Below are positions 1,482-57,080 of a stretch of DNA of 64,000 bases, piece by piece. The notes below the pieces were generated by a model. The model did no database searches, was not told the origin of the DNA, and saw only the letters and a list, made by a program, of their open reading frames with translations. The stretch is from an uncultured virus (IMG/VR IMGVR_UViG_3300006217_002156) (lineage: Duplodnaviria > Heunggongvirae > Uroviricota > Caudoviricetes), in IMG/VR virus record IMGVR_UViG_3300006217_002156; one strand, 5' to 3'. Both the position numbers and the translations under genes were made by a program. How positions within the stretch are numbered: position 1 is the first letter of the stretch; every line of letters starts with the position of its first letter.

Positions 1482-1702
1482 CAGCCTCCACAAGAGAGGC
1501 CGGCTGGCCGGCCGAAATGTCCGAAGCAAACGAAGTGTCAACAGCAGTTGGATCTTCAGTCAAATCTGATTGTCAGTGTAAAATTTGTGTAAACGCAATA
1601 TGAACTATGTGTGAACATATTGTCGCACCAGATATCAGATTATTACTGTGTATATCAGATTTATCAAATTGCCCCGAAAAAACGAGAAAGAGAGGAAAAG
1701 AC

Positions 1703-1942
1703 ATGTCAATGAAAAGCACACTCCAGGACATGCTCCTGGGCAAGCTCCAGCGGGAGCGTCAAGTGGTGACAGTTTTTATCACCAACGGATTCAGGACAAG
1801 TGGCCGGATTACCGGCTTTGACCAGCACACAATCGTACTGGAGATCAGAGGGGAACAGCAGATTATTTCTAAACACGCCGTTTCCACCATCACCCCCAGC
1901 CAGCCAGTCGACTTGGACAACTTGCGAGAGGAGGCGCGGTAA
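1703..1942 (+). CDS. hfq: Hfq/Sm-like RNA chaperone, phage copy 1
   Basis: LQD..L..L..ER..VTVF.TNG...GRI.GFD..(Sm1) and KHAVSTI.P (Sm2). Confidence 0.9.
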   Translation: MSMKSTLQDMLLGKLQRERQVVTVFITNGFRTSGRITGFDQHTIVLEIRGEQQIISKHAVSTITPSQPVDLDNLREEAR

Positions 1943-4975: not shown

Positions 4976-6360
4976 CGGACGTGAGCTACGATGCCCAGGT
5001 GGGCGTGCTGGGCTCTATCCTGCTGGAGCCGGGGCTGGTGGGCCAGGTCATGACCCGGGTCCGGCCGGAGGATTTCACAAGCGGAGTGTATCGGACCATC
5101 TACCAGGCCATTACCGGGCTGTTCCTGGAGGGGAAAACGCCAGACCCTGTCCTGGTACGGGAGCGGCTGTCCGGGATAGGAGCCATCGGTGAGACCCTGT
5201 ACCAAATCATGACTCTGACCCCCACCGCCTCCAACGTCTGGGAGTACACGTCGGAGCTGAAAAAGCAAGCTGCGCTGGCCTCCCTGCGGGAGATCGGGCG
5301 ACAGCTGGAGGCAGTGCTGGCGCTGGAGGAGGCCCAAGAGCTGGTGGATCAGGCCAACGCCGTGTTCTCCGCCCGGCCTGGGGTGGAGCGAGTAAGCGCC
5401 CAGCAGTTGGTGGAGGACTTTATGGACCGCCACGGTGAAGGCAGGCACCCGGATTATCTCACATGGTCGCTACCCAAGCTGAACGACCGGATGTACACCG
5501 AGGCGGGAGACATGGTGCTGCTGGGCGGCTACGCCAGCGCCGGAAAGACGGCCCTGGCCCTGCGGTTTGCCTGGCACATGGCGAAGAGCCGACGGGTGGG
5601 CTTCTACAGCCTGGAGACCGGCCCCTCCAAGCTGGGGGACCGGTCGGTGGCCGCCATTGCCGGGATCGACATGGGGGCCATCAAACGCAGTACCCTCACC
5701 GACGGAGACTGGGAGAAGCTGGCCGACTATGCGGAGGGGATGGCGGAGTGTACTCTAGACTTGATTCCCGCCGGCGGGATGACCGTCCAGGATATTCAGG
5801 CGGACGCCCTGGCCCACCGGTATGAGGTGGTCTACTTGGACTATGTACAGATCATCAAGGCCCCCAAGGGCGGGAACCGCACAGAGATCGTGACCAATAT
5901 CAGCATCGAGCTCCACCAGCTGGCCCAGACCCACGGGGTCACGGTGGTGGCCCTGTCCCAGCTGAGCCGGGCCAAGAGCACTGGAGACGGCGGAGAGGCG
6001 GCCCCCACCATGAGCAGCCTGCGGGAGTCCGGCCAGCTGGAGCAGGACGCGGACGCGGTGCTGCTGCTGTACCGGGAGGAGCCGGACAGGCCGGAGAGCC
6101 GCCGGGTGCTGTTCGTGGCGAAGAACAAAGAGGGGGCCATCGGGAAGCTCTATCTGGACTTCGACGGCCGGACTCAGACCTTCCGGGAGTCGGACACCAC
6201 CAACGAGGTAGCCTCCGCTATGTCGGCTGCGGGCCGGAAGGCAAGGCGTTCCACCCGGGAAGCAAAGGACAAACAGATGACCTGGGAGGACCTGACCGAG
6301 AAGTTGGACAGAGAATTTCCATTTGCCGATAAGGAGGAACAACATGACACAGACAGATAA
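4969..6360 (+). CDS. dnaB: DnaB-like replicative helicase
   Basis: GGYASAGKT, YSLE, DYVQII, LSQLSR, LRESGQLEQDAD. Confidence 0.95.
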   Translation: MVADVSYDAQVGVLGSILLEPGLVGQVMTRVRPEDFTSGVYRTIYQAITGLFLEGKTPDPVLVRERLSGIGAIGETLYQIMTLTPTASNVWEYTSELKKQAALASLREIGRQLEAVLALEEAQELVDQANAVFSARPGVERVSAQQLVEDFMDRHGEGRHPDYLTWSLPKLNDRMYTEAGDMVLLGGYASAGKTALALRFAWHMAKSRRVGFYSLETGPSKLGDRSVAAIAGIDMGAIKRSTLTDGDWEKLADYAEGMAECTLDLIPAGGMTVQDIQADALAHRYEVVYLDYVQIIKAPKGGNRTEIVTNISIELHQLAQTHGVTVVALSQLSRAKSTGDGGEAAPTMSSLRESGQLEQDADAVLLLYREEPDRPESRRVLFVAKNKEGAIGKLYLDFDGRTQTFRESDTTNEVASAMSAAGRKARRSTREAKDKQMTWEDLTEKLDREFPFADKEEQHDTDR

Positions 6361-6640
6361 AGCGGCCCTGGCGAACCGGCTGGACGGTGTGGGCCTGGTG
6401 ACCCCCACCCTGGCGGAGGGGCAACCGGAGCAGATGGATACGGTCCGGGATATTGAGACCATCACCGGCGAGATTCTGGAGGCCAAGCGTGTAGGCGGTG
6501 AGGCTATTATCACCATCGGCCAGCGGCGTGAAGGAGTAGGTGGCCATGGCCCTGGAGCACATAGGCGACGTCCAGGTGGTGTCGGTGACCGAGACCGTCC
6601 AGGAGCAGTTGAGTATTGGAGGATAATATGCGAATTTTGA
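6344..6640 (+). pseudogene. Probably truncated DUF3102-like gene
   Basis: RDIETITGEILEAKRVGGEAIITIGQR, then protein-like sequence is lost. Confidence 0.45.
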
Positions 6641-6855
6641 AGCCCGGCGACCCCTGCCCCTGCTGCGGGCAGCCCATCAAGGAGGGACTGCCCGCCGAGG
6701 CAATTATAGCGCTCAGCTGGATTCAATATGGACTGGAGCTGCGGATGGCACTGAGCGAAGTCAATAAGAAGCCTATGCTCTCACAAGAGACCAGCGATCT
6801 GCCGTCTGCGGGCTGGCGGACCTGGATGCGAAAGCGTTTTGAAATAGAGGACTGA
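6628..6855 (+). CDS. Small Cys-containing hypothetical protein
   Basis: LKPGDPCPCCGQPI; GGAGG RBS. Confidence 0.6.
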   Translation: MRILKPGDPCPCCGQPIKEGLPAEAIIALSWIQYGLELRMALSEVNKKPMLSQETSDLPSAGWRTWMRKRFEIED

Positions 6856-6857
6856 GC

Positions 6858-7331
6858 ATGGAGGCCGTTAATAGAAGAATCATATTGGTCTGTGTGCCAG
6901 AGATGGACGTGGAGCGCCAGCGGGAGATACGGGATTTCCTACTGGAGGGGTGGCAAAAAGGTATGATGGTAGTATCTGACGAAGCAGAGATATCAATACT
7001 GGAACTTCCGCCGCTGTATGGTGTGGCAGTACAGCCGCAGGACCCTGCGCCGGAAGCGTTTCCGAGCCTGGAATCTGAGCCTCCTCCCGGTGAGGCGTCT
7101 GAAGGCGAGGAGAAACGCGCCATCTTCCGGCGCTTGCAGGACTACCGCGCCGCCCATGGCCGCGGATGCCTGGCCGAAGTGGCCAAAGCGACCCGCACCA
7201 GGGGACGGCTCAGCGACAGCACCCTGCGGATGCTTTTGACGGGCGACACCGTACTGCCCATCGAGGACTGGCGGAGAATCGGCAGGGCGCTGGAGCGATT
7301 GGAAAAGCAGGAGGCAAGCCATGTCGGATGA
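6858..7331 (+). CDS. Hypothetical protein with a possible C-terminal HTH
   Basis: RBS and operon context. Confidence 0.6.
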   Translation: MEAVNRRIILVCVPEMDVERQREIRDFLLEGWQKGMMVVSDEAEISILELPPLYGVAVQPQDPAPEAFPSLESEPPPGEASEGEEKRAIFRRLQDYRAAHGRGCLAEVAKATRTRGRLSDSTLRMLLTGDTVLPIEDWRRIGRALERLEKQEASHVG

Positions 7332-18627: not shown

Positions 18628-18927
18628 ATGTCTGCTTTTGTTGTTTCTTACCGCAATGTTGTTATCCCCCACCCCGATGGCGGGCCCCCTTGCCACCTGA
18701 CCAGGGGGTATGCCGGTCCGGTGCCCGACTGGGTGCCTGGGATCGCCTACTTCAAGGCTCTTGAGGCGGACGGCAAGATTGTCCTGTCCACGTCCAGGAA
18801 GGACAAGGACCTGCGCAGAGCCAAGGCGGCGGCGGATAAAGCCCGCAAGACCGCCGAAAAGGCTGTCCAGGAATCGGCGGCGCCGGTCGGTGATTCTGTG
18901 GAGGAACCAGATGTATCCAGAGAGTAA
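18628..18927 (+). CDS. Small head-associated protein
   Basis: VPDWV....YFKAL..DGKI; follows capsid. Confidence 0.65.
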   Translation: MSAFVVSYRNVVIPHPDGGPPCHLTRGYAGPVPDWVPGIAYFKALEADGKIVLSTSRKDKDLRRAKAAADKARKTAEKAVQESAAPVGDSVEEPDVSRE

Positions 18928-19414
18928 GCCCCAGTTTCTGGGCGTAAAAGCTGCGGCGGCCAATATCGGTCGAGGGACGGGTGAATATACCACCGATATG
19001 TTTCAGGAGGATTTTCCCCAGTTCTTCACTAAGGGTACAGAGGAAGCGCCGCCGGCCTCCCTCCTGACCCAGACCATGCTGGAAGCGTTCATCAGACAGG
19101 CCAACGCGGCTATCCAGCCGGACAAGTGGCTGGATGTCTGGCGGTACGCCTGCGGGCTCTATGTGGCCCATAACGCCGCGCTATACCTGCGCACCTGGTC
19201 CGAGGGCAGTGACAGCCCCGCCCAGGCGGCGGCTTCGGGGGCACTGGTGGGAGTGGTCAGGTCGGCCCAACTGGGGGACAGCTCCGTCAGCTATGACACC
19301 AGCGCCCTTACCCGGGCCACCGAGGATTGGGGCGACCTGAACAGTACCCAGTATGGCCAGCTGCTGGCCTCCAGGGCCAGGCTGGTGGGTATGGGAGGAA
19401 CCTACAGTATATAG
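18911..19414 (+). CDS. DUF4054 head-tail connector
   Basis: F.EDFPQF, GLYVAH, GD.SVSYD, STQYGQ.L. Confidence 0.85.
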   Translation: MYPESKPQFLGVKAAAANIGRGTGEYTTDMFQEDFPQFFTKGTEEAPPASLLTQTMLEAFIRQANAAIQPDKWLDVWRYACGLYVAHNAALYLRTWSEGSDSPAQAAASGALVGVVRSAQLGDSSVSYDTSALTRATEDWGDLNSTQYGQLLASRARLVGMGGTYSI

Positions 19415-19555
19415 AGCTCTTATACATATATATGTAGGAGACTAACGCAGGAAATCTGCTGCTCCCTTCCCTTTTCATCGCACCCGCTTTGGCCTTAGCT
19501 AATCGCATTTATGTGGTGCTCCCAGGGCTTAACTTCCCCCGCTCTGTCGGGGTAG
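19406..19555 (-). ncRNA. TnpB omegaRNA scaffold A1 (cognate, downstream of tnpB)
   Basis: ctaccccgacagagcgggggaagttaagccctgggag...gatgaaaagggaa pattern right after the tnpB stop. Confidence 0.75.
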
Positions 19556-19564
19556 GCAGCTGAT

Positions 19565-20728
19565 TTAGGCCAACTGCAAACCATAGTTTCTGAGGTTAAT
19601 TGCTGCTGCCAAGTCTCGGTTATTGTGTGCTCCACACTGAGGACATGTCCACGACCGGACTGTCAAATCCTTTGTGGCAGGATTCTTTGTTCCACACTGG
19701 GGGCAGAGCTGAGAAGACGGGAAAAATCTGTCGGCCCTGATGAATCGGATATTGTACCAGTTGCTTTTATATTCCAGCTGGCGCAGGAACTCATAAAAGC
19801 CTTGATCTTGAATTGCCTTGGAAAGGTGCTTGTTCTTCATCATCCCGGAGACATTCAAATTCTCCACAGTGATGCTGCAAGGTATTTTCTTTATAATGGC
19901 AGCGCTAGACTGATGGCGATGATTTTGGCGGATGTTGGTCAGGCGGCGTTTGATCCGTAGCACCTGTTTCTCTAACTTTCGGATGTTAGCAGTCTTAATA
20001 AGCCTCTGACCAACTTTGTTCATCTCATACTTTCGTGAAAGCCGCCTCTGGAGCCGCCGCAGCTTCTTTTCCAGACGGCGGACCTCCTGTGTGTGGTTGA
20101 TGTTGCCGAAGGTGGTTCCGTCTGAACATACAGCAAGGTTTTTGATTCCTACATCTATGCCCAGCGGTTCTCCTGTGGGAACCTCCTGAGAATCAGGAAA
20201 CTCATAGACAGCACTGAGCCACCAGTTCAGACCATCATAAGTAACTCGAGCTGAGTAGGCAGGCCGGTCAAGGGGTAACTTGTTCTTTTCGGCTAATTTG
20301 ACCCAGTTGAAGGTGCGGCCCTTTTTCAAAAGAGGATGTAACTTTTGAATCTTGACGTACCAAGGACGAACTTTCACACTTCGTCCTTCCAGGTAGAACG
20401 AGGGCCGGGATTTTGTCCGAGACTTGAAACGAGGGTATTTGGCTTTTCCCTTAAAAAAGTTTTGATAGGCTGTAGTGGCGTCTTTGATAGCTGCAGTAGC
20501 TACTATGCGTGCAGTGTCATTGAGCCAGGAATATTCAGGTTTCCGTCTGAGGGAGGTGAGCTCCTTGCACAAATCGAAGGAGCTCAGAAACTTCTCGCCC
20601 TGTGCATAGTTCTCCTGCTCCCGGCTCAGTGCCCAGTTATAAGCCCACCGGGCCACGCCCGCACATTGGAACAAACGGGTTTGCTGCTTGTTGTTCGGGT
20701 GTAGCATGACCCGAATGGTCTTATACAT
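19565..20728 (-). CDS. tnpB: TnpB RNA-guided endonuclease, RuvC D-E-D intact
   Basis: HTH_OrfB N-terminus, GIDVG, VENLNV, CPQC/CPQC Zn finger, RDLAAAINL. Confidence 0.95.
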   Translation of the reverse strand: MYKTIRVMLHPNNKQQTRLFQCAGVARWAYNWALSREQENYAQGEKFLSSFDLCKELTSLRRKPEYSWLNDTARIVATAAIKDATTAYQNFFKGKAKYPRFKSRTKSRPSFYLEGRSVKVRPWYVKIQKLHPLLKKGRTFNWVKLAEKNKLPLDRPAYSARVTYDGLNWWLSAVYEFPDSQEVPTGEPLGIDVGIKNLAVCSDGTTFGNINHTQEVRRLEKKLRRLQRRLSRKYEMNKVGQRLIKTANIRKLEKQVLRIKRRLTNIRQNHRHQSSAAIIKKIPCSITVENLNVSGMMKNKHLSKAIQDQGFYEFLRQLEYKSNWYNIRFIRADRFFPSSQLCPQCGTKNPATKDLTVRSWTCPQCGAHNNRDLAAAINLRNYGLQLA

Positions 20729-20939
20729 TGTTTGGCCTCCCACATGTAATGCGCCGGTATATAGCAGCCAGTGTATCAGCAACACCCTGGAGCCATTTGT
20801 CGTGTTTGTCCCTGGGTGTAACCGCAGTAAACCGGTTCAAGGTAATCTCTTGAATGAGCCTGAAATCCCCTGTTTCCGTAAGGGCAAGCCTTACAGTGAA
20901 TCCGTAAAACTGGATTGTTCCCTCTTGGAGCAGTTGGAC

Positions 20940-21037
20940 GGCCTGTGGTATCGGCTTCTCAGCCGTTCGCGGTTCGCCGTGCCGCCCAGCGGCAGCACTC
21001 CCCGCGCGTTTAGGTTCGGACCTGCCCGGCCCTACCG
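20940..21037 (-). ncRNA. Orphan IS605-type omegaRNA-like scaffold B1
   Basis: ggtagggccgggcaggtccgaacctaaacgcgcggggag...gaaccgcgaacggctgagaagccg; homologous to 23227-23322. Confidence 0.6.
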
Positions 21038-21060
21038 CACCATTAGTTGTCGCATCAGGG

Positions 21061-21516
21061 TCACGCCGCATTCTGAGCGCCCCCTCTCTCCTGCACCTTG
21101 ACCCGGAGCTTGACCCCCAGGCTATATCCCTGCCCCATGCCTCCATAGATGGCGTACTGGACCACCTGGGTCTCCATACCGGCGTCCATGAGCGGGGCCA
21201 GCATGGCGGCCACCTCACGGGGCAGGTGCCCTACCTGGCCCACCCTGCGGCCCCACAGAAGACCGTACACAGCGATGGCGTTCTTGTCGTAGGGGTTGTC
21301 CGGTTCCCGCTCCAGCTGGTAGCTGGTGTCCTCCAGGACGTTCTGTTCCAGTCTGCGGAGCACCTGCTGACTGTTGCCGAAGGTAACGCCCACAGCCTTA
21401 GTGACGAGACTGCCCACCTTGATGAAGGCCCAGGCCCGCCGCATGGCCTCCCCCCGGTCCTTCAGGACGGGGGAGAGACGGTTGGCGATTGCCATAACTT
21501 GTTTTCTAGTGTTCAT
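21061..21516 (-). CDS. HIRAN-domain protein
   Basis: VGVTF, LEREPDNPYDKNAIAV, VGHLPREVAAMLAPLMDAG. Confidence 0.9.
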   Translation of the reverse strand: MNTRKQVMAIANRLSPVLKDRGEAMRRAWAFIKVGSLVTKAVGVTFGNSQQVLRRLEQNVLEDTSYQLEREPDNPYDKNAIAVYGLLWGRRVGQVGHLPREVAAMLAPLMDAGMETQVVQYAIYGGMGQGYSLGVKLRVKVQERGGAQNAA

Positions 21517-21523
21517 TTTGATA

Positions 21524-21647
21524 CCTCCTATAGAGCTTGAGACTGATTTTTTGCTCAATTCCCCATTCACAGCACCCGCTTTGGCCGAAGCTGCTTGCGT
21601 TTGTACGGCGCTCCAGAGGCTTGACTTCCCCCGCTCTGTCGGGGTAG
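21524..21647 (-). ncRNA. Second A-type omegaRNA scaffold A2 (orphan)
   Basis: 24-nt identity with A1 (21624-21647 = 19532-19555) and colinear similarity through agctctata. Confidence 0.7.
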
Positions 21648-21659
21648 TGTTTGCTGTAA

Positions 21660-21884
21660 TCATAACATTTTCAGGTCTTCCAGGTCGATGGCCCGGTCGG
21701 GCGCGATAGTGGAGACGGCGTGCTTGTAGATGAAATACTGTTCATTCCTGATTTCCACCGCCACAATGGTCTCATCGAAGCCAGTGATCCGCCCCTTCAT
21801 CTGGAAGCCGTTTGTGATGATGACAGTCACCACCTGACGCTCCTGTTGGAGTCTGGAAAGGATGCGGTCCTGTAAATTGTTCAT
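21660..21884 (-). CDS. hfq: Hfq/Sm-like RNA chaperone, phage copy 2
   Basis: NLQDRIL..L..ER.VVTV..TNGFQMKGRITGFD...IYKHAVSTIAP. Confidence 0.92.
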   Translation of the reverse strand: MNNLQDRILSRLQQERQVVTVIITNGFQMKGRITGFDETIVAVEIRNEQYFIYKHAVSTIAPDRAIDLEDLKML

Positions 21885-22075
21885 GCCACACCTCCGAAGT
21901 CCGCAGCCTGGGCACGGTTGTACCGTTTTAAAATCGAAAGCTGGCAGTCGGGGCACAGGACATGCCCGAATAGGTCCGGGTCGGCCTCCCGGCCCCACAG
22001 CTCCGCTTGGCAGCAGTCGCAGTAGGCGTCCGGGATGGTTTGCTGGGGGTCTGTAAGAATCGAAAATTTTAGCAT
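21881..22075 (-). CDS. Small Zn-finger protein
   Basis: CDCC...LCPDC; GAGGAGG RBS; overlaps the hfq start. Confidence 0.65.
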   Translation of the reverse strand: MLKFSILTDPQQTIPDAYCDCCQAELWGREADPDLFGHVLCPDCQLSILKRYNRAQAADFGGVA

Positions 22076-22169
22076 AAAAATGGGCCTCCTCATTTGATTT
22101 TTAGAAAAAACTATGGTAAGATAGACCCAGGAACCAGGGGCCGAAGCCCCTGGCCTGGGAGGGGCCTAG

Positions 22170-22256
22170 TTATCTAGGCCAGTTGGCTACCAAAGCGTCA
22201 TGCAGGCTGTCGTAGGCTTTGCCCTGGTAGTGCCACTTTCCCGAGTGGAACCGCAT
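22170..22256 (-). CDS. 28-aa peptide MRFHSGKWHYQGKAYDSLHDALVANWPR
   Basis: GGGAGGTG RBS; TGGACA-17-TACAAT promoter; homolog at 39151-39240. Confidence 0.7.
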   Translation of the reverse strand: MRFHSGKWHYQGKAYDSLHDALVANWPR

Positions 22257-22475
22257 GTTCTTCACCTCCCTTTTCAGTCTCCGCTGGCCGGGTGTCCTAC
22301 CACCCGGCCCGGCGGGATTGTCAGCGGGTTTCCCCGGCTGATGGTGTTATTGTATCACCTCGAATACATTTTGTCCATTGGCAGAATGTACTAACTTGAA
22401 TACATTTCTTTGTGCAGAATTGTACTTGAGTGAATACGCTCTCTGTGGTACAATTAGATGCGAAAGGAGGACCTA

Positions 22476-22751
22476 ATGCCGATTTCGATGGTAAAGGTGA
22501 AGGAAGTCATGAATCAGCGTGGGTTAAAAAAATTTGACCTAAGAAAGCAAGGATTTAGCCCAAATGTTATCGACAAGGTGCTGTCTGGCCCACTGGACAA
22601 AACCAAAAGGGTCGATACTGAAACCATTGACAGGCTGTGTGAGGTGCTCGAGTGCCAACCAGGCGATATAATGGAGTACGTTCCCGACCCCGACGGCGAA
22701 CAAAAAAGCCCGCCCCCCGGAGAGGGGAGCGGGAGCGGGCTTGACAACTAA
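22476..22751 (+). CDS. HTH_26 (YozG-like) regulator
   Basis: TIDRLCEVLECQPGDIMEYV. Confidence 0.85.
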   Translation: MPISMVKVKEVMNQRGLKKFDLRKQGFSPNVIDKVLSGPLDKTKRVDTETIDRLCEVLECQPGDIMEYVPDPDGEQKSPPPGEGSGSGLDN

Positions 22752-23091
22752 ACACCAAGCGGTTATAATAACGGCAAGAGGACGGTTCCCCTGTGTGCTA
22801 GACAGAGGAGCGGCCAACTAAGAGCAAAGTAATTGGAATTGCCGCTTCTTGCTAGGGACAGGGGGCGGCTATTTCTTTAGGTTATTGCCTAAAGCGATAG
22901 CGGTAAGTACGAGCATAAAGAGTGCTATAACTTCGCCAACGCTCATGGGCTTTCCTCCTTTCAGAGTTAGCCCCGCCCTCTTGCTGGACAATAATATACC
23001 ACAGATCTTGCAAAAGCACAACAAAAAACCCCGCCCCCCGGGGAGGGGAGCGGGAGCGGGCTTGACAACTAAACACCAAGCGGTTATACTA
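22699..23091 (+). repeat. ~72 bp direct repeat (22699-22770; 23020-23091) carrying an antitoxin-RNA promoter
   Basis: ...gggagcgggcTTGACAactaaacaccaagcggtTATAAT/TATACT twice. Confidence 0.85.
22869..22946 (-). CDS. Type I toxin-like hydrophobic peptide MSVGEVIALFMLVLTAIALGNNLKK
   Basis: AAGGAGG RBS; single TM plus lysine tail; convergent antisense promoter. Confidence 0.75.
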   Translation of the reverse strand: MSVGEVIALFMLVLTAIALGNNLKK

Positions 23092-23177
23092 AAGACAACG
23101 AGGGTGCGACCAACAGACGGTCAACCCCCGGGTTTAGTTACAAAGAAGTAACCGCTATGCTGGGGAGCAGAGGGCGG

Positions 23178-23225
23178 TTACTTCTTTTTACCCTGGATGA
23201 ACAGGCTGCAAATGCCAATGATAAC
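23178..23225 (-). pseudogene. 3' remnant of a holin-like type I toxin (VIIGICSLFIQGKKK*)
   Basis: 14/15 aa identical to the C-terminus of 42628-42708; 5' part replaced by scaffold B2. Confidence 0.75.
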
Positions 23226-23226
23226 A

Positions 23227-23322
23227 CGGTAGGGCGGGGTACGCCCGAACCTAACGCGCGGGGAGAGAAGGGCAATGGCCCGCTCGACGAACCGCGAACG
23301 GCTAAAAGCCGATGCCAATGCC
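23227..23322 (+). ncRNA. Orphan IS605-type omegaRNA-like scaffold B2
   Basis: cggtagggcggggtacgcccgaacctaacgcgcggggaga...ctcgacgaaccgcgaacggctaaaagccg. Confidence 0.6.
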
Positions 23323-23348
23323 AGAAAACAACCCTGAAAGGAGCCCAC

Positions 23349-23474
23349 ATGTCCCCCAAAACAATCGCCGCCATCATCGCGGCCCTTGACAAGGGCTTCC
23401 GGGTGGAACTGACAAAAGAAAAAGACGGTGGTATCGCCATACGCACCGTCACCCGGAAGGCCCTGAAAATTTAA
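23349..23474 (+). CDS. 41-aa protein (MSPKTIAAIIAALDKGFRVEL...), paralog of 14321-14449
   Basis: AAAGGAG RBS; aligns with 14321-14449. Confidence 0.7.
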   Translation: MSPKTIAAIIAALDKGFRVELTKEKDGGIAIRTVTRKALKI

Positions 23475-23481
23475 CATTGTA

Positions 23482-23557
23482 CCCACGCCCTAAGCGGTGG
23501 GCGGGAAGAGCTGAGTGGAGCTGACAGGAGAAATCCTGTTGGCTCTATTTTTATTTT
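23482..23557 (+). promoter_or_regulatory. Structured leader/attenuator motif, copy 2
   Basis: Same architecture as 15750-15826 with compensatory changes. Confidence 0.65.
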
Positions 23558-23570
23558 GGAAGGAGGTCAT

Positions 23571-23978
23571 ATGAACTACAATGACTGGTATACCGACTTG
23601 GTGGATGTCTACCGGGTCCAATCGGTTCAAGACGGGGCCCTGACTACGCAGGAGCGGGTCCTGGTGGAGGCGAATATCCCATGCCGGGTCTATCGGAACA
23701 GCGTCCACGGGCCCAGGATGCAGCCCACCGCCGCCAAGGTGGAGCAGGAGGATAAGCTGGCCTGCGCCAATGAGGCGGACATCCGGGGCGGCGATGAGCT
23801 GATAATCCGCCGGGGTGCCCGCCTGGATCAGGCCCGCCAGCGAGTCCGGGCCTTCGCCGGAGAGCCGGCCTATTTCTATGAACCCTTTGGAGCGGTCCTC
23901 CCCGGCCTGGCCCACCAGGAGTTGGCTCTGCTCCAGATGGAGTATCTGAAGGGAGAGGTGGACGATGGCAGCAGGTGA
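23571..23978 (+). CDS. Head-tail adaptor/closure protein
   Basis: Position; IPCRVY, DIR.GDEL.I, HQE. Confidence 0.75.
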   Translation: MNYNDWYTDLVDVYRVQSVQDGALTTQERVLVEANIPCRVYRNSVHGPRMQPTAAKVEQEDKLACANEADIRGGDELIIRRGARLDQARQRVRAFAGEPAYFYEPFGAVLPGLAHQELALLQMEYLKGEVDDGSR

Positions 23979-24474: not shown

Positions 24475-24923
24475 CCTTCACCATACAGACCCTCGCCAGC
24501 TCCCTGGCCGACTACCTGCGTCCGGAGCTTCCCGGCGCGACCTTCTACAGCAGCCCCAACCAGCAGGGTACCCGCCTTCCGGCTCTGTTCCTACGGCGCA
24601 CCAACGCTCGGATTGCAAGGAAGACGGGAGACCGTTTCCTGCGCACACTGGGGCTGGACCTGGTATATATAGAGGAGTTTAACCAGTTGGGCATGGACGA
24701 CCGCTACACCGCCGCCGCTGACATCCTGGACCAGGTGATGGAGACCTTTCCTTACTACAGCGGCGAGGGTAAACGGACTGCCCTCCTGCGGACCTATGAG
24801 CGCAAGTGGGACATCGTCGACGATGTCCTCCACTATAAATTCGACCTCAAAATCTGGGTGGGCAAGGCAGAGGATACGGTCCTGATGCAATCCATCCAGT
24901 CCTATCATGAGGAGGTATCTTAA
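24471..24923 (+). CDS. Tail terminator-like protein
   Basis: QQG...PA.F, DDVLHYKF. Confidence 0.7.
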   Translation: MTFTIQTLASSLADYLRPELPGATFYSSPNQQGTRLPALFLRRTNARIARKTGDRFLRTLGLDLVYIEEFNQLGMDDRYTAAADILDQVMETFPYYSGEGKRTALLRTYERKWDIVDDVLHYKFDLKIWVGKAEDTVLMQSIQSYHEEVS

Positions 24924-25105
24924 TGGACAAGAAACCTACCACTAAGGCGGAGGGCCCCCGGTATTCTACCGCTGATCTGCTGAACAGCAAGGCGCTGTCC
25001 GGCTACCAGCGGGACTTTGCCAGGGTCCTGCTGACCAAGCCGGACTATACCCTCCAGGAGGCCAAGGCTATCCTGGGCAACTTCTTTAAGGGAGGTGACG
25101 CCTGA
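24923..25105 (+). CDS. Small tail-region protein
   Basis: Precedes sheath; homolog of 61057-61242. Confidence 0.7.
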   Translation: MDKKPTTKAEGPRYSTADLLNSKALSGYQRDFARVLLTKPDYTLQEAKAILGNFFKGGDA

Positions 25106-53809: not shown

Positions 53810-55351
53810 ATGGTGGTGCTGAATTTGCGAAATGACTGCGCAGTTAGGACGGACACCAACTTCAAGCTCGGTATGACAGACAGGCGCTTTTTGGAGCTGG
53901 AGATTACATCCTGGCTGCATTCCCTGGAGCGTAAGCAACAGCTCACCGCTGAGATCTATTATGATGGCCGGCAGGACGTGCTCAAGAGGAGGCGCATGGC
54001 GCTGGACGACGACGGCAAGCTGGTGCAGCTGGAGCATTTGCCCAACAACCGGCTGGTCAATAATCTCTACTCCAAGATGGTGGACCAAAAGACGAACTAC
54101 TCTTTTGGCCGCCCTTTTTCTTTTGATACCGAAAACAAAGAGTACGCCAAGGTTTTGGGAAATGTTTTCGGCCACCGCTTCCGCCGTACGCTCCGCAACA
54201 TCGGAGAGGGCGCTTTTATTGGCGGGAAAAGCTGGCTTTATATCTACTACGACGATAACGGGGAACTGAGCTTCAAGCGATTTCCAGCCCATGAGATCCT
54301 GCCCTTTTGGGCGGATGCGGACCATACTATACTGGATGCTGCCGTCCACGTCTATGCGGTGCTGGAGTATGACGAAGATGAACAGGCAAAAAAGGTGGTC
54401 AAGGTAGAAGTGATGCATGGCGGCGGCGTGGATTGCTTTTTTCGCCGGGATGACGGCACCCTTGAGCCAGACCCGGATGGGAGATCCGGCCCCTATATAG
54501 CCGTGGCGGATTCCTCCGACAGGGTGGTCAGCGGTTATAACTGGGAGCGCATCCCGTTGATTTGCTTTAAAAGCTCTCACCATGAAATTCCCCTGCTGTC
54601 CAGGGTGAAGTGCCTGCAGGACGCCTATAATGACATCCTTTCTAACTTCACCAACCAGATGGAGGAGGATATCCACAGCACCATCCTGGTCATTAAGAAT
54701 TATGACGGAGAGGATCTTGGCACTTTCCGCAAAAATCTGTCAACTTACGGCGCCATTAAGGTCCGTTCCTATGAGGGAGCTGAGGGTGGGGTAGATACCC
54801 TTGAGATCACTGTGAACGCTGAAAACTATAAGGTGCTGCTCTCTCTGCTGAAAGACGCCATTATCGAAAATGCCAGAGGTTACGACGCCAAGGATGACCG
54901 CATGAGCGGCAACCCGAACCAGCTAAACATAAAGACGATGCTGTGCGACATTGATTTGGATGCCAACGGGATCGAAACCGAGTTTCAGGCCAGTATGGAA
55001 GAGCTGCTGTGGTTTGTCAACCGGCATCTGGTCAACACCGGGCAAGGAAATTTTGAAAACGAACCGATTCGCATGATCTTTGACCGGGATACCGTTATCA
55101 ATGAGAGTGAGGTTATCACTAACTGCAAGAACTCCGTGGGCATCCTCTCAGATGAAACCATTGTGAAGATGCACCCCTGGGTGGACGATCCCACAACTGA
55201 GCTTGAGCGGATCAAAAGGGAAAGGGAGGAGGCTGCCGACGACCCCTACCAGGCCGCTTTTATGGCCAACCGGAAGAACAGCGCAGGCGGCTCCGGTGGT
55301 GATCCATTGACCGGCCAGGACGGCGGTGACAGCAATGGCCCGGCAGACTAA
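53810..55351 (+). CDS. SPP1-type portal
   Basis: YY.G.QD, VDQK..Y, NW..IP.I.FK, S.ET....HPWV.D...EL.RI. Confidence 0.9.
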   Translation: MVVLNLRNDCAVRTDTNFKLGMTDRRFLELEITSWLHSLERKQQLTAEIYYDGRQDVLKRRRMALDDDGKLVQLEHLPNNRLVNNLYSKMVDQKTNYSFGRPFSFDTENKEYAKVLGNVFGHRFRRTLRNIGEGAFIGGKSWLYIYYDDNGELSFKRFPAHEILPFWADADHTILDAAVHVYAVLEYDEDEQAKKVVKVEVMHGGGVDCFFRRDDGTLEPDPDGRSGPYIAVADSSDRVVSGYNWERIPLICFKSSHHEIPLLSRVKCLQDAYNDILSNFTNQMEEDIHSTILVIKNYDGEDLGTFRKNLSTYGAIKVRSYEGAEGGVDTLEITVNAENYKVLLSLLKDAIIENARGYDAKDDRMSGNPNQLNIKTMLCDIDLDANGIETEFQASMEELLWFVNRHLVNTGQGNFENEPIRMIFDRDTVINESEVITNCKNSVGILSDETIVKMHPWVDDPTTELERIKREREEAADDPYQAAFMANRKNSAGGSGGDPLTGQDGGDSNGPAD

Positions 55352-57080
55352 TGCCGCCTATTGGGCCCAGCGCATGAAAAATATGGAGGATGCGCTGCTG
55401 AACCAGTCCTATGGATATGTTGAGAATATGGAGCGGCAATTTGCCGCCGCCCAAGTCGAGATCGAGCGTCAAATCGCCGCATGGTATCAGCGCTTTGCAG
55501 ACGCCAACGGCATCACCTTTGCGGACGCCAAGCGGCTGCTCACTAAAGGGGAGCTGGAGGAGTTTCACTGGAGCGTGGAGGAGTACATTGCCCACGGTCA
55601 GCAAAACGCCCTTAACGGGGCCTGGATGCGCCAGCTTGAGAATGTCAGCGCCAGGATGCAAGTCACACGGCTGGAGGCGTTAAAGCTCCAGATCCAGCAG
55701 CAGGCGGAGGTGCTGTACGCCAACCAGCTCGACTTTGTGGACGCCGCCGCCCGGGAAATGTACTTAGGAAGCTACTACCACACCGTCTTTGAGATCCAGC
55801 GGGGCCTTGGGGTAGGCTGGACTATGCAGGCTATCAATGAGGAGACCATTAAAAAAGTGCTCTCCCGTCCCTGGACTATCGACGCTCAGACCTTTCGGGA
55901 CCGATGTTGGACCAACAAGCAGGCTCTGGTCAACAGTGTCAATACTCAGCTGACGCAAATGATCATCCGGGGAGAGGCCCCGGATCGGGCCATTGCCGCC
56001 GTGGCCAAGCAGTTCAACGTGTCCAAGGGGAAAGCGGGCCGCCTCATCATGACGGAAAGTGCCTATTTTGCCGGCGCGGGGCAAAAGGACTGTTATGGTG
56101 AGCTGGGGGTGGAGCGGTTCAAGGTCGTGGCCACCTTCGACAAGGGCACCTGCGACATATGCGGGGCGATGGACGGCCAGGTTTTCAAAATGTCGGAGTA
56201 TCAGGTGGGCCTCACCGCTCCGCCGTTCCATCCCTGGTGCCGGTGCTGCACTGCCCCCTATTTTGAGGATATAGAAGGCCTGGGGGAACGTTATGCCCGT
56301 GACGCTGTGACAGGTGAGCACTTCAAGGTGCCAAACAATATGACCTATGAACAGTGGAGAGTAAAACAAAATGAGCTCCACGGTGACGGAACAGTTGAAA
56401 AAATGCGGATGATGAGCTATAATGAGAGCGCTGATAAAGCTCAATATAGCCGCTATCAGTCAGTTTTGGGCGAGTTGTCCCCGGAGAGTTTTGCCGATTT
56501 TCAGCGGCTCAAGTACAATGATCCAGATGGCTGGGCCACGGCCAAGGCTCAGTATAGAATCCTCAATAGCTACAAAGTGGATGCGGGCGAGCTGTCCCGC
56601 ACAGATATTTTGCAGTTGGATAATGTGGTCATTACAGAGAAACGATCCAATTTTGCCAGCGCTTTCAAATACAGCGGCAACATTGCTGGTGCTTATCTGG
56701 ATGGTGACAGTGCTGCCATGTATTATGCGCACAGCAAGATATCCGAAAGTCCCAAGGGCTATAAGGGCAGCGCTGAGCTTGTCTTATTGAAAGACGAGCG
56801 CAGATTTTCCTATATTGATGTTTTGACAGATACCGGTGCAATGCGGAGCGGCACATGGCACGATACAGAGGCTAAGCTGTTTGAGTATTTTGCGGATTTG
56901 TACGAAATAACCCCCTTTACGTCTATCACCATGCTCTCGGAGAGAGGCATGTGTGATAGTTGTAAGGGTGTTATGGAGCAGTTCCAAGCGCTCCACCCGG
57001 ATGTAAAAATCAATGTTGTTTCCAACAAAAAGGTGGAGAGCGATGTCTGGAAGCACAGGAGGCGGAAAAGAAAAAAATGA
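55335..57080 (+). CDS. MuF minor capsid protein with C-terminal deaminase toxin domain
   Basis: TC..C..MDG, PPFHPWCRC; then HDTEAK...SERGMCDSCK.V..QF...HP. Confidence 0.85.
   Translation: MARQTNAAYWAQRMKNMEDALLNQSYGYVENMERQFAAAQVEIERQIAAWYQRFADANGITFADAKRLLTKGELEEFHWSVEEYIAHGQQNALNGAWMRQLENVSARMQVTRLEALKLQIQQQAEVLYANQLDFVDAAAREMYLGSYYHTVFEIQRGLGVGWTMQAINEETIKKVLSRPWTIDAQTFRDRCWTNKQALVNSVNTQLTQMIIRGEAPDRAIAAVAKQFNVSKGKAGRLIMTESAYFAGAGQKDCYGELGVERFKVVATFDKGTCDICGAMDGQVFKMSEYQVGLTAPPFHPWCRCCTAPYFEDIEGLGERYARDAVTGEHFKVPNNMTYEQWRVKQNELHGDGTVEKMRMMSYNESADKAQYSRYQSVLGELSPESFADFQRLKYNDPDGWATAKAQYRILNSYKVDAGELSRTDILQLDNVVITEKRSNFASAFKYSGNIAGAYLDGDSAAMYYAHSKISESPKGYKGSAELVLLKDERRFSYIDVLTDTGAMRSGTWHDTEAKLFEYFADLYEITPFTSITMLSERGMCDSCKGVMEQFQALHPDVKINVVSNKKVESDVWKHRRRKRKK

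Follow-up and report, generated by a model that had tools for sequence, protein, structure and literature searches.

Our analysis identifies A2 as a real, intact, stand-alone reRNA. It is a compact 117-nt scaffold of the RAGATH-18/IS607 type (positions 21530..21646, minus strand; Rfam RF03064 match and pseudoknot register), and it lies immediately before the Shine-Dalgarno (SD) sequence of a HIRAN-domain gene in the window, the 64,000-nt stretch of DNA analyzed here. The best explanation, to which we give a probability of about one half, is that A2 is a stand-alone second DNA-targeting guide for the intact TnpB encoded nearby and that the SD is captured flank.

The A2 locus is situated within the head module of a prophage, in a 4.16-kb island (19411..23570) delimited by comparison with relatives and contigs. 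The island separates a DUF4054 gene (18911-19414) from the next head gene (23571-23978). These two genes directly overlap in 56 of 80 phage relatives, and one study's four gut metagenome runs all yielded contigs in which the island is skipped. Its minus strand carries, in order, a small ORF, hfq, A2, the HIRAN gene, B1, tnpB, and A1. The right part holds an HTH gene, B2, and two units called type I toxin-antitoxin-like from a reading of their promoters, terminators, and small ORFs. Four scaffolds (A1, A2, B1, and B2) therefore fall within 4 kb.

Against RAGATH-18 (Rfam RF03064; gathering score 44.9), the family described as the guide scaffold of IS607 TnpB (Ren et al., PMC11061315), A2 scored 47.9 bits and A1 53.7 bits. 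The two copies are 79% identical across 96 nt, and no third A-type copy was detected in the whole window with a search model trained with A1 and A2. Both contain GCTCTATA on the minus strand, after which A2 alone runs into AGGAGG (21529-21524), followed by a 7-nt spacer and the HIRAN ATG (21516-21514). The letters that the sequence-only reading gave for the ends of A1 and A2 and for the HIRAN ribosome-binding site (RBS) are correct. On the 5' side, the stop codon of a phage hfq gene (21660..21884, minus strand; PF17209, E 6e-22) precedes A2 by 13 nt; with the 117-nt unit removed, the hfq-HIRAN spacer would be an ordinary 13 nt, the SD, and 7 nt. No effector gene lies directly upstream of A2, and a tnpB of the cognate type is found ~800 nt downstream, which is the arrangement of a stand-alone omegaRNA. 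The window holds another phage-borne hfq gene at 1607-1942 (+).

To place the 3' end of the scaffold, we gathered canonical reRNAs from 240 loci of TnpB relatives. An 8-nt first loop was present in 58 of these canonical reRNAs, and every one of the 58 pairs nucleotides 3-7 of that loop with nucleotides -2 to -6 of the right end; the ISFba1 structure names this contact between first loop and 3' end PK2 (PMC11061315). Applied to A1 and A2, this register gave a single best solution in each, with five Watson-Crick pairs between AGAGC and GCTCT. In A2, the first-loop strand AGAGC (canonical CGTTA) occupies 21633..21637 and the 3' strand GCTCT (canonical TAACG) 21532..21536, both on the minus strand. 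The AGAGC loop was present in 0 of 111 canonical reRNAs. The register ends A1, the cognate reRNA behind tnpB, at 19411, giving it 144 nt (19411..19554, minus strand; RF03064 and register), equal to the canonical median. It ends A2 at 21530, and the SD is therefore the guide seed rather than the scaffold terminus. In the predicted 20-nt A2 guide (21510..21529, minus strand), AGGAGG takes up positions +1 to +6 and the HIRAN ATG positions +14 to +16. Thus, the earlier proposal that the scaffold terminates on the SD has to be corrected, whereas its companion proposal, that the guide covers the HIRAN start, stands.

The exact DNA end was also considered. A GG core right end of the TAACGG/CAACGG type closes 95 of 111 canonical ends, and by the register A1 and A2 end in CTCTAT. 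The two copies match at three extra positions 8-10 nt beyond the pseudoknot strand, and an alternative DNA end 7 nt beyond that strand could place AGGAG inside the A2 terminus. Such an end would fit the observation that GTC is the most frequent codon at DUF4054 junctions without the island (34 of 56), where the codon of the window's left flank occurs in 0 of 56. With either end, the canonical register would place the SD within what the RNP would use as its seed.

The structure of A2 has been kept. Its 3' stem-loop (21537..21558, minus strand, from sequence comparison) has arms TTGAG/CTCAA where A1 has GGGAG/CTCCT, a difference of two changes, each on both sides of the stem. The Rfam core contains 17 differences between A1 and A2 in 61 positions, but 15 of its 16 base pairs form in each copy and the remaining one is open in both. 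Four of the pairs differ in sequence, and these are formed in A1 as well as in A2. Differences fall in 10 of 64 family-conserved columns and in 14 of 48 columns elsewhere, a depletion that is not significant (p 0.11). At 117 nt, A2 lies below the range of the 58 canonical scaffolds (126-160 nt), and the 27 nt absent from it map to the 3' flank of the scaffold. We infer that they correspond to those parts of the 3' flank that were disordered and dispensable in the ISFba1 reRNA (PMC11061315). The TATAAG-type right-end repeat is likewise missing from the compact form; the fold is nonetheless kept. Equilibrium folding gave unremarkable z-scores (-1.18 for A2 and 0.10 for A1), and the SD was mostly paired whether or not the pseudoknot strands were held, in a program that cannot form the real fold. 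With the rewired pseudoknot of A1 and intact stems, A2 appears fit to be bound by the neighboring TnpB.

The tnpB gene (19565..20728, minus strand) encodes a 387-aa protein of the IS607/RAGATH-18 clade, as assigned by family match and alignment, and its RuvC triad D192/E289/D372 is intact. Its subclade comprises 14 other proteins, 66-85% identical to it, and beyond these identity drops to 55%. Across the subclade, D192 and D372 are invariant (14 of 14) and E289 is found in 13 of 14. A profile of 10 tnpA ORFs from relatives, run in six frames, found no tnpA in the island, and the ORF before tnpB was rejected as a tnpA remnant on the same result. In ISFba1, lysine K83 is described as reading G(-1), the last G of the TAM (PMC11061315). 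When residues were mapped onto chain 8IAZ with an inferred +3 numbering offset, the ISFba1 TAM contacts K80 and K83 aligned to I75 and T78 of our TnpB, and the N121/N122 TAM-contact region fell in an alignment gap. Among the matches listed, K83 is retained in 7 of 7 canonical relatives and in 0 of 8 subclade sequences. These substitutions suggest that the TAM of the subclade probably differs from the canonical G-rich TAM.

Comparison with described systems places the locus among stand-alone reRNAs, a known kind. It shares with the IS607 TnpB/RAGATH-18 reRNA of ISFba1 (8IAZ; Ren et al. 2024, PMC11061315) the scaffold core, the first hairpin, and the terminal pseudoknot; a 387-aa TnpB with intact RuvC and an A1 of canonical length are further likenesses to such systems. 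The differences are the lack of tnpA, the AGAGC/GCTCT pseudoknot, the lack of a terminal GG at the scaffold end, the replaced TAM-reading lysines, and a second scaffold, 27 nt shorter, upstream of tnpB. The stand-alone trans-acting omegaRNAs of Altae-Tran et al. 2023 (PMC10691335) are similar in having no effector or transposase at the scaffold and a compatible effector in the same DNA. Unlike them, A2 lies inside the putative operon of its effector within a prophage island, its seed is an SD, and two scaffolds of a second (IS605) type lie nearby. In the IStron TnpB/omegaRNA system (Zedaveinyte et al., bioRxiv 2023.11.20.567912), a bound scaffold in a longer transcript also covers a junction; here, there is no group I intron (no Rfam match), and the covered feature would be the SD. 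TldR repressors (PMC13622181; PMC10705468) are TnpB relatives without a transposase, as is the protein studied here, which resides in a prophage. TldRs are described as nuclease-dead and repressing at DNA, whereas this TnpB keeps all three RuvC residues. What is new is the compact scaffold, the rewired pseudoknot, the tnpA-free TnpB subclade, and the four-scaffold prophage island. An A2-like arrangement at an SD was not found in the IS607/TnpB or HIRAN/TnpB literature within our coverage, outside which most subscription papers lie.

We assessed how unusual it is for a guide to contain a start codon. The ATG of an ORF of at least 80 aa lies within 25 nt in 48 of 98 distinct canonical guides, compared with 164 of 1620 random flank positions (10%). 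Guides holding start codons are thus common in the RAGATH-18/IS607 family, as expected from SD-like TAMs; the measured TAMs contained AGGAG in 18 of 22 strains and GAGGG in 4 (PMC11061315). The placement of A2 is therefore above chance against random DNA and not against its family, and because a scaffold at a start codon is common family anatomy, placement alone is no evidence of regulation. Canonical insertions split the SD, with the first ATG at offset 6-9 in 24 of the 42 ATG-bearing guides (of 58), and only one of 98 canonical guides keeps a full SD and the start. Because the A2 guide has a whole SD and its ATG at offset 13, what is usual in the family does not directly account for it. Without A2, hfq and HIRAN are separated by so short a spacer (13 nt and the SD) that any tolerated insertion would end near the SD.

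Stand-alone reRNAs beside tnpB are rare. None was found near tnpB in a search of 134 canonical loci (all 80 genome loci and 54 of the 80 viral loci), and the two second reRNA matches among these loci each stood behind a tnpB of their own. At a Paraclostridium locus represented twice in our set (L051 and L225, ~6170-6950), a reRNA-like scaffold was observed ~650 nt downstream of tnpB, and the interval contains a 30-nt CRISPR-like repeat at least twice.

The gene behind A2 (21061..21516, minus strand) encodes a stand-alone HIRAN-domain protein of 151 aa (PF08797, E 6e-15) with nine close relatives. One HIRAN relative, P0129, contains two in-frame inserts, both missing from its sister P0128 cluster of 13 members. 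Residues 135-164 of P0129 are 83% identical to A2 read in frame across 30 codons; at least 83 of the 90 nt are compatible with A2 and 78 with A1, and shuffled peptides need at least 36 changes. The other insert, near the start (residues 13-42), shares 68% identity with the in-frame reading of B1 and is a clean addition of 31-32 codons. At the A-type insert, HIRAN codons continue to its first base and about three codons are lost. P0129, a single protein from two short contigs that could be a pseudogene or a misassembly, indicates that the compact scaffold also sits inside HIRAN coding sequence and not only at the RBS. Together with our failure to find a conserved A2-HIRAN junction, this insert speaks against the suggestion that an omegaRNA had been co-opted at HIRAN. 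No reRNA was found at 19 distant HIRAN loci; the loci L365 and L366 have ordinary SD sequences. The TnpB P0012 and the HIRAN protein P0137 have the same sources, contig count, and size of longest contig, a hint that the two genes travel together. We also noted that an ATG overlapping the hfq stop opens a stop-free frame of 200 aa through A2 into HIRAN (21061-21663, minus strand).

Next to the A2 guide's own site, no second perfect site was found in the window or in 3.37 Mb of loci. The best other match (17/20) falls at 24910-24929 (+), on the RBS and start of a small gene before the tail sheath gene; it has a perfect 10-nt seed, and we did not accept it as a target, given that p was ~0.06 once the SD and ATG were taken into account. 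The A1 guide matches the uninterrupted phage junction at 16/20 positions in three loci (L105, L106, and L108), with three seed mismatches, and the codon needed for a perfect match was present at 0 of 56 empty junctions. This match is preceded by TTCAT, which would suit an AT-rich TAM. An A2-less HIRAN allele was not seen as DNA, and the A2 target is therefore hypothetical.

Searches for homologous DNA of the island, which covered samples and do not establish absence, found none. The four DNA runs of one study contained no contig over A2. The exact A-hairpin pattern gave 0 matches in metagenome contigs and the longer A and B patterns 0 and 0 in viral contigs. A 16-nt pattern matched 21 loci in viral contigs, all unrelated by BLAST; L262 and L263 were inspected and rejected. 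TnpB scans of viral, genome, and metagenome contigs listed 80 loci each, with none of those listed above 55% identity, and HIRAN scans retrieved distant relatives only. Aligned against samples of 54, 401, 5, and 401 genomes, HIRAN gave 0, 2, 1 (the same), and 0 matches, and TnpB against 12 and 2 genomes gave 0. The island DNA, compared with 401 genomes with two candidates scored per genome, gave almost only hfq-type matches. Nothing close to the island was present among annotated phages and plasmids, and the A2 translation, used as a query, found no other carriers.

As a second guide, A2 would have arrived in the hfq-HIRAN spacer either as the remnant of an IS607-type right end or by a scaffold-only insertion, and the SD and start codon of HIRAN, mere flank, would have become its guide. 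If A2 is expressed, the TnpB encoded ~800 nt downstream would load it as a second scaffold and trim its 5' side. The guide could then act on the DNA of A2-less alleles and so serve homing or maintenance in a variable island of the prophage. Covering of the SD while TnpB is bound, and loss of the downstream message upon guide trimming, would be side effects. Stand-alone omegaRNAs acting in trans have been described, and their role has been called unknown (PMC10691335); for an IS607 TnpB, CboTnpB, the RNA is described as working equally in trans and as being processed on its 5' side. We favor the second-guide reading because A2 has kept its architecture and the rewired pseudoknot of A1, because RuvC is intact, because it is normal in the family for a right end to be followed by a start region, because P0129 carries A2-type and B-type inserts that the P0128 cluster lacks, and because the A1 guide aligns with the uninterrupted phage junction. 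It is weakened by the whole SD, the lost TAM lysine, the rarity of stand-alone reRNAs beside tnpB, the seed mismatches of the A1 guide, and differences that are not depleted in conserved columns. The second-guide reading is compatible with both translational feedback and scaffold-only mobility, which we weigh below.

Translational regulation by A2 is possible, with no support yet. A2 may have been co-opted and kept as the 5' leader of a HIRAN-tnpB message, on which bound TnpB would hold the SD in its guide channel, block HIRAN translation, destabilize the message, and so limit TnpB itself; we regard this as rather unlikely. Such a feedback loop is physically possible, as A2 stands upstream of HIRAN and tnpB in a terminator-free stretch (no minus-strand terminator-like site between 22126 and tnpB) and behind a promoter-like site. 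This sigma70-like site (21659..21688, minus strand; 9/12, extended TG), from which transcription would start ~6 nt before A2, is weak evidence, since seven such sites were found in the region versus 2.4 expected. Another sigma70-like promoter (22349..22377, minus strand; 10/12, TG) lies upstream of the run from the small ORF through hfq, A2, and HIRAN to tnpB. The exact fit of the SD to guide positions +1 to +6, the typically pre-organized seeds of TnpB (PMC13622181), the fold kept by compact A2 without its TATAAG-type repeat, and the coincidence of P0012 and P0137, as a hint of lasting linkage, are all in keeping with feedback, as is the reported repression of IStron splicing by both active and dead TnpB, which cover the junction of scaffold and guide (bioRxiv 2023.11.20.567912). 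However, tnpB has a GGAGG SD of its own (in the 8-nt range), about half of the family members hold a start codon in the guide with no sign of design, no conserved junction was found, an A2-type scaffold is placed elsewhere in P0129, and no result connects Hfq with A2. Moreover, one TnpB ortholog, the IS200/IS605-type AmaTnpB, is reported to process its RNA by RuvC at the 5' end and not on the 3' flank (Nety et al., PMC10278001). With processing on the 5' side only, a cut would fall between hfq and the scaffold and not at the SD. Of the RBS control envisaged in the sequence-only reading, occlusion is thus plausible, whereas direct removal of the RBS by TnpB is not supported.

Two further explanations concern the origin of A2, and we consider both improbable. 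The scaffolds may be mobile units without a left end, tnpA, or tnpB, copied around the island at exact RNA lengths (~117 nt for the IS607 type and ~93-96 nt for the IS605 type), each minting a guide from its flank, which would make the island a self-programming multi-guide cassette. The crowding of four scaffolds into 4 kb, with no further A- or B-type copy elsewhere in the window, is consistent with this, as are the clean insert boundaries in P0129 and a B2 that is present, absent, or otherwise arranged among the contigs of one study. However, the idea rests largely on one back-translated protein and on a method that sees only in-frame cases, the scanned window ORFs include no reverse transcriptase or transposase, the window has no TnpB for the B scaffolds, and the A2-translation search gave no other carrier; repeated whole-element insertion and deletion could also produce the same picture. 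Alternatively, A2 could be an inert relic, the right end of a lost element whose structure-preserving changes date from the time of its own tnpB and which now lacks any function. The lack of a perfect target in the window and the 3.37 Mb of loci would agree with a relic, and the bases 5' of A2 bear a weak resemblance to the 3' end of a tnpB gene plus spacer. This likeness may instead be native hfq sequence, because the other phage hfq of the window ends in a similar peptide. The absence of any stem-breaking change in A2 and the recurrence of the compact form in P0129 also count against a relic. A combined scenario, in which gut prophages took up a tnpA-free TnpB subclade with its rewired pseudoknot and altered TAM contacts into a HIRAN-linked island, where bare scaffolds of two families spread as RNA-length copies, each drawing a guide from its flank, and the copy at the SD closes a self-silencing loop, seems to us similarly unlikely.

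The locus offers a natural 117-nt reRNA, 27 nt below the family median, and a naturally rewired pseudoknot for compact editors, for which a TnpB subclade with a probably different TAM would also be useful. The function of stand-alone omegaRNAs could moreover be addressed cleanly at this locus. Should the feedback be real, TnpB binding would be expected to silence the downstream gene at about half of all RAGATH-18 elements; we found no discussion of such a general silencing cost in the literature searched. If scaffold copying and feedback were both true, scaffold insertion would be a way of acquiring guides, alternative to the spacer acquisition of CRISPR and with translational control built in.

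The two other scaffolds of the island are of the IS605 type. B1 (20945..21037, minus strand) is a stand-alone omegaRNA-like scaffold recognized by motif comparison; a possible ORF (21071-20721) reads through it without a stop. This ORF extends over the end of HIRAN and the beginning of tnpB and gave no family match. B2 (23227..23318, plus strand) aligns at 93% identity across 43 nt with the right end of an IS605 element in L360 and is replaced by 139 other letters in contigs of two of the four runs. Where B2 stands here, related contigs have the 5' portion of a small gene resembling a type I toxin, and in one type of contig B2 is joined, in the opposite orientation, to 22121. In viral loci, the B motif stood behind a tnpB in five of five cases; in our window, neither a TnpB matching the B scaffolds nor a further B-type copy was found. 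The end hairpin is shortened in both B1 and B2.

Several features of the island borders and surroundings were also recorded. The last bases of A1 supply the TAG stop (19411-19414) of the plus-strand DUF4054 (head-tail connector) gene, the right end of the island gives a new SD to the next head gene (23560-23573), and ATAT is present at both island junctions. The type I toxin-antitoxin-like region at 22699-23230 consists of two tandem units with near-perfect sigma70 promoters on the plus strand and, on the minus strand, short ORFs that are hydrophobic and have strong terminators. A gut-2 RNA-like match (23481-23528, plus strand; 37.4 bits versus a gathering score of 39.8) follows a 41-aa ORF of phrog_29211. 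Finally, a second prophage in the window encodes, at 55326-57080 (+), a MuF-like head protein that carries a fused deaminase toxin domain (PF14424); a small ORF comes next.
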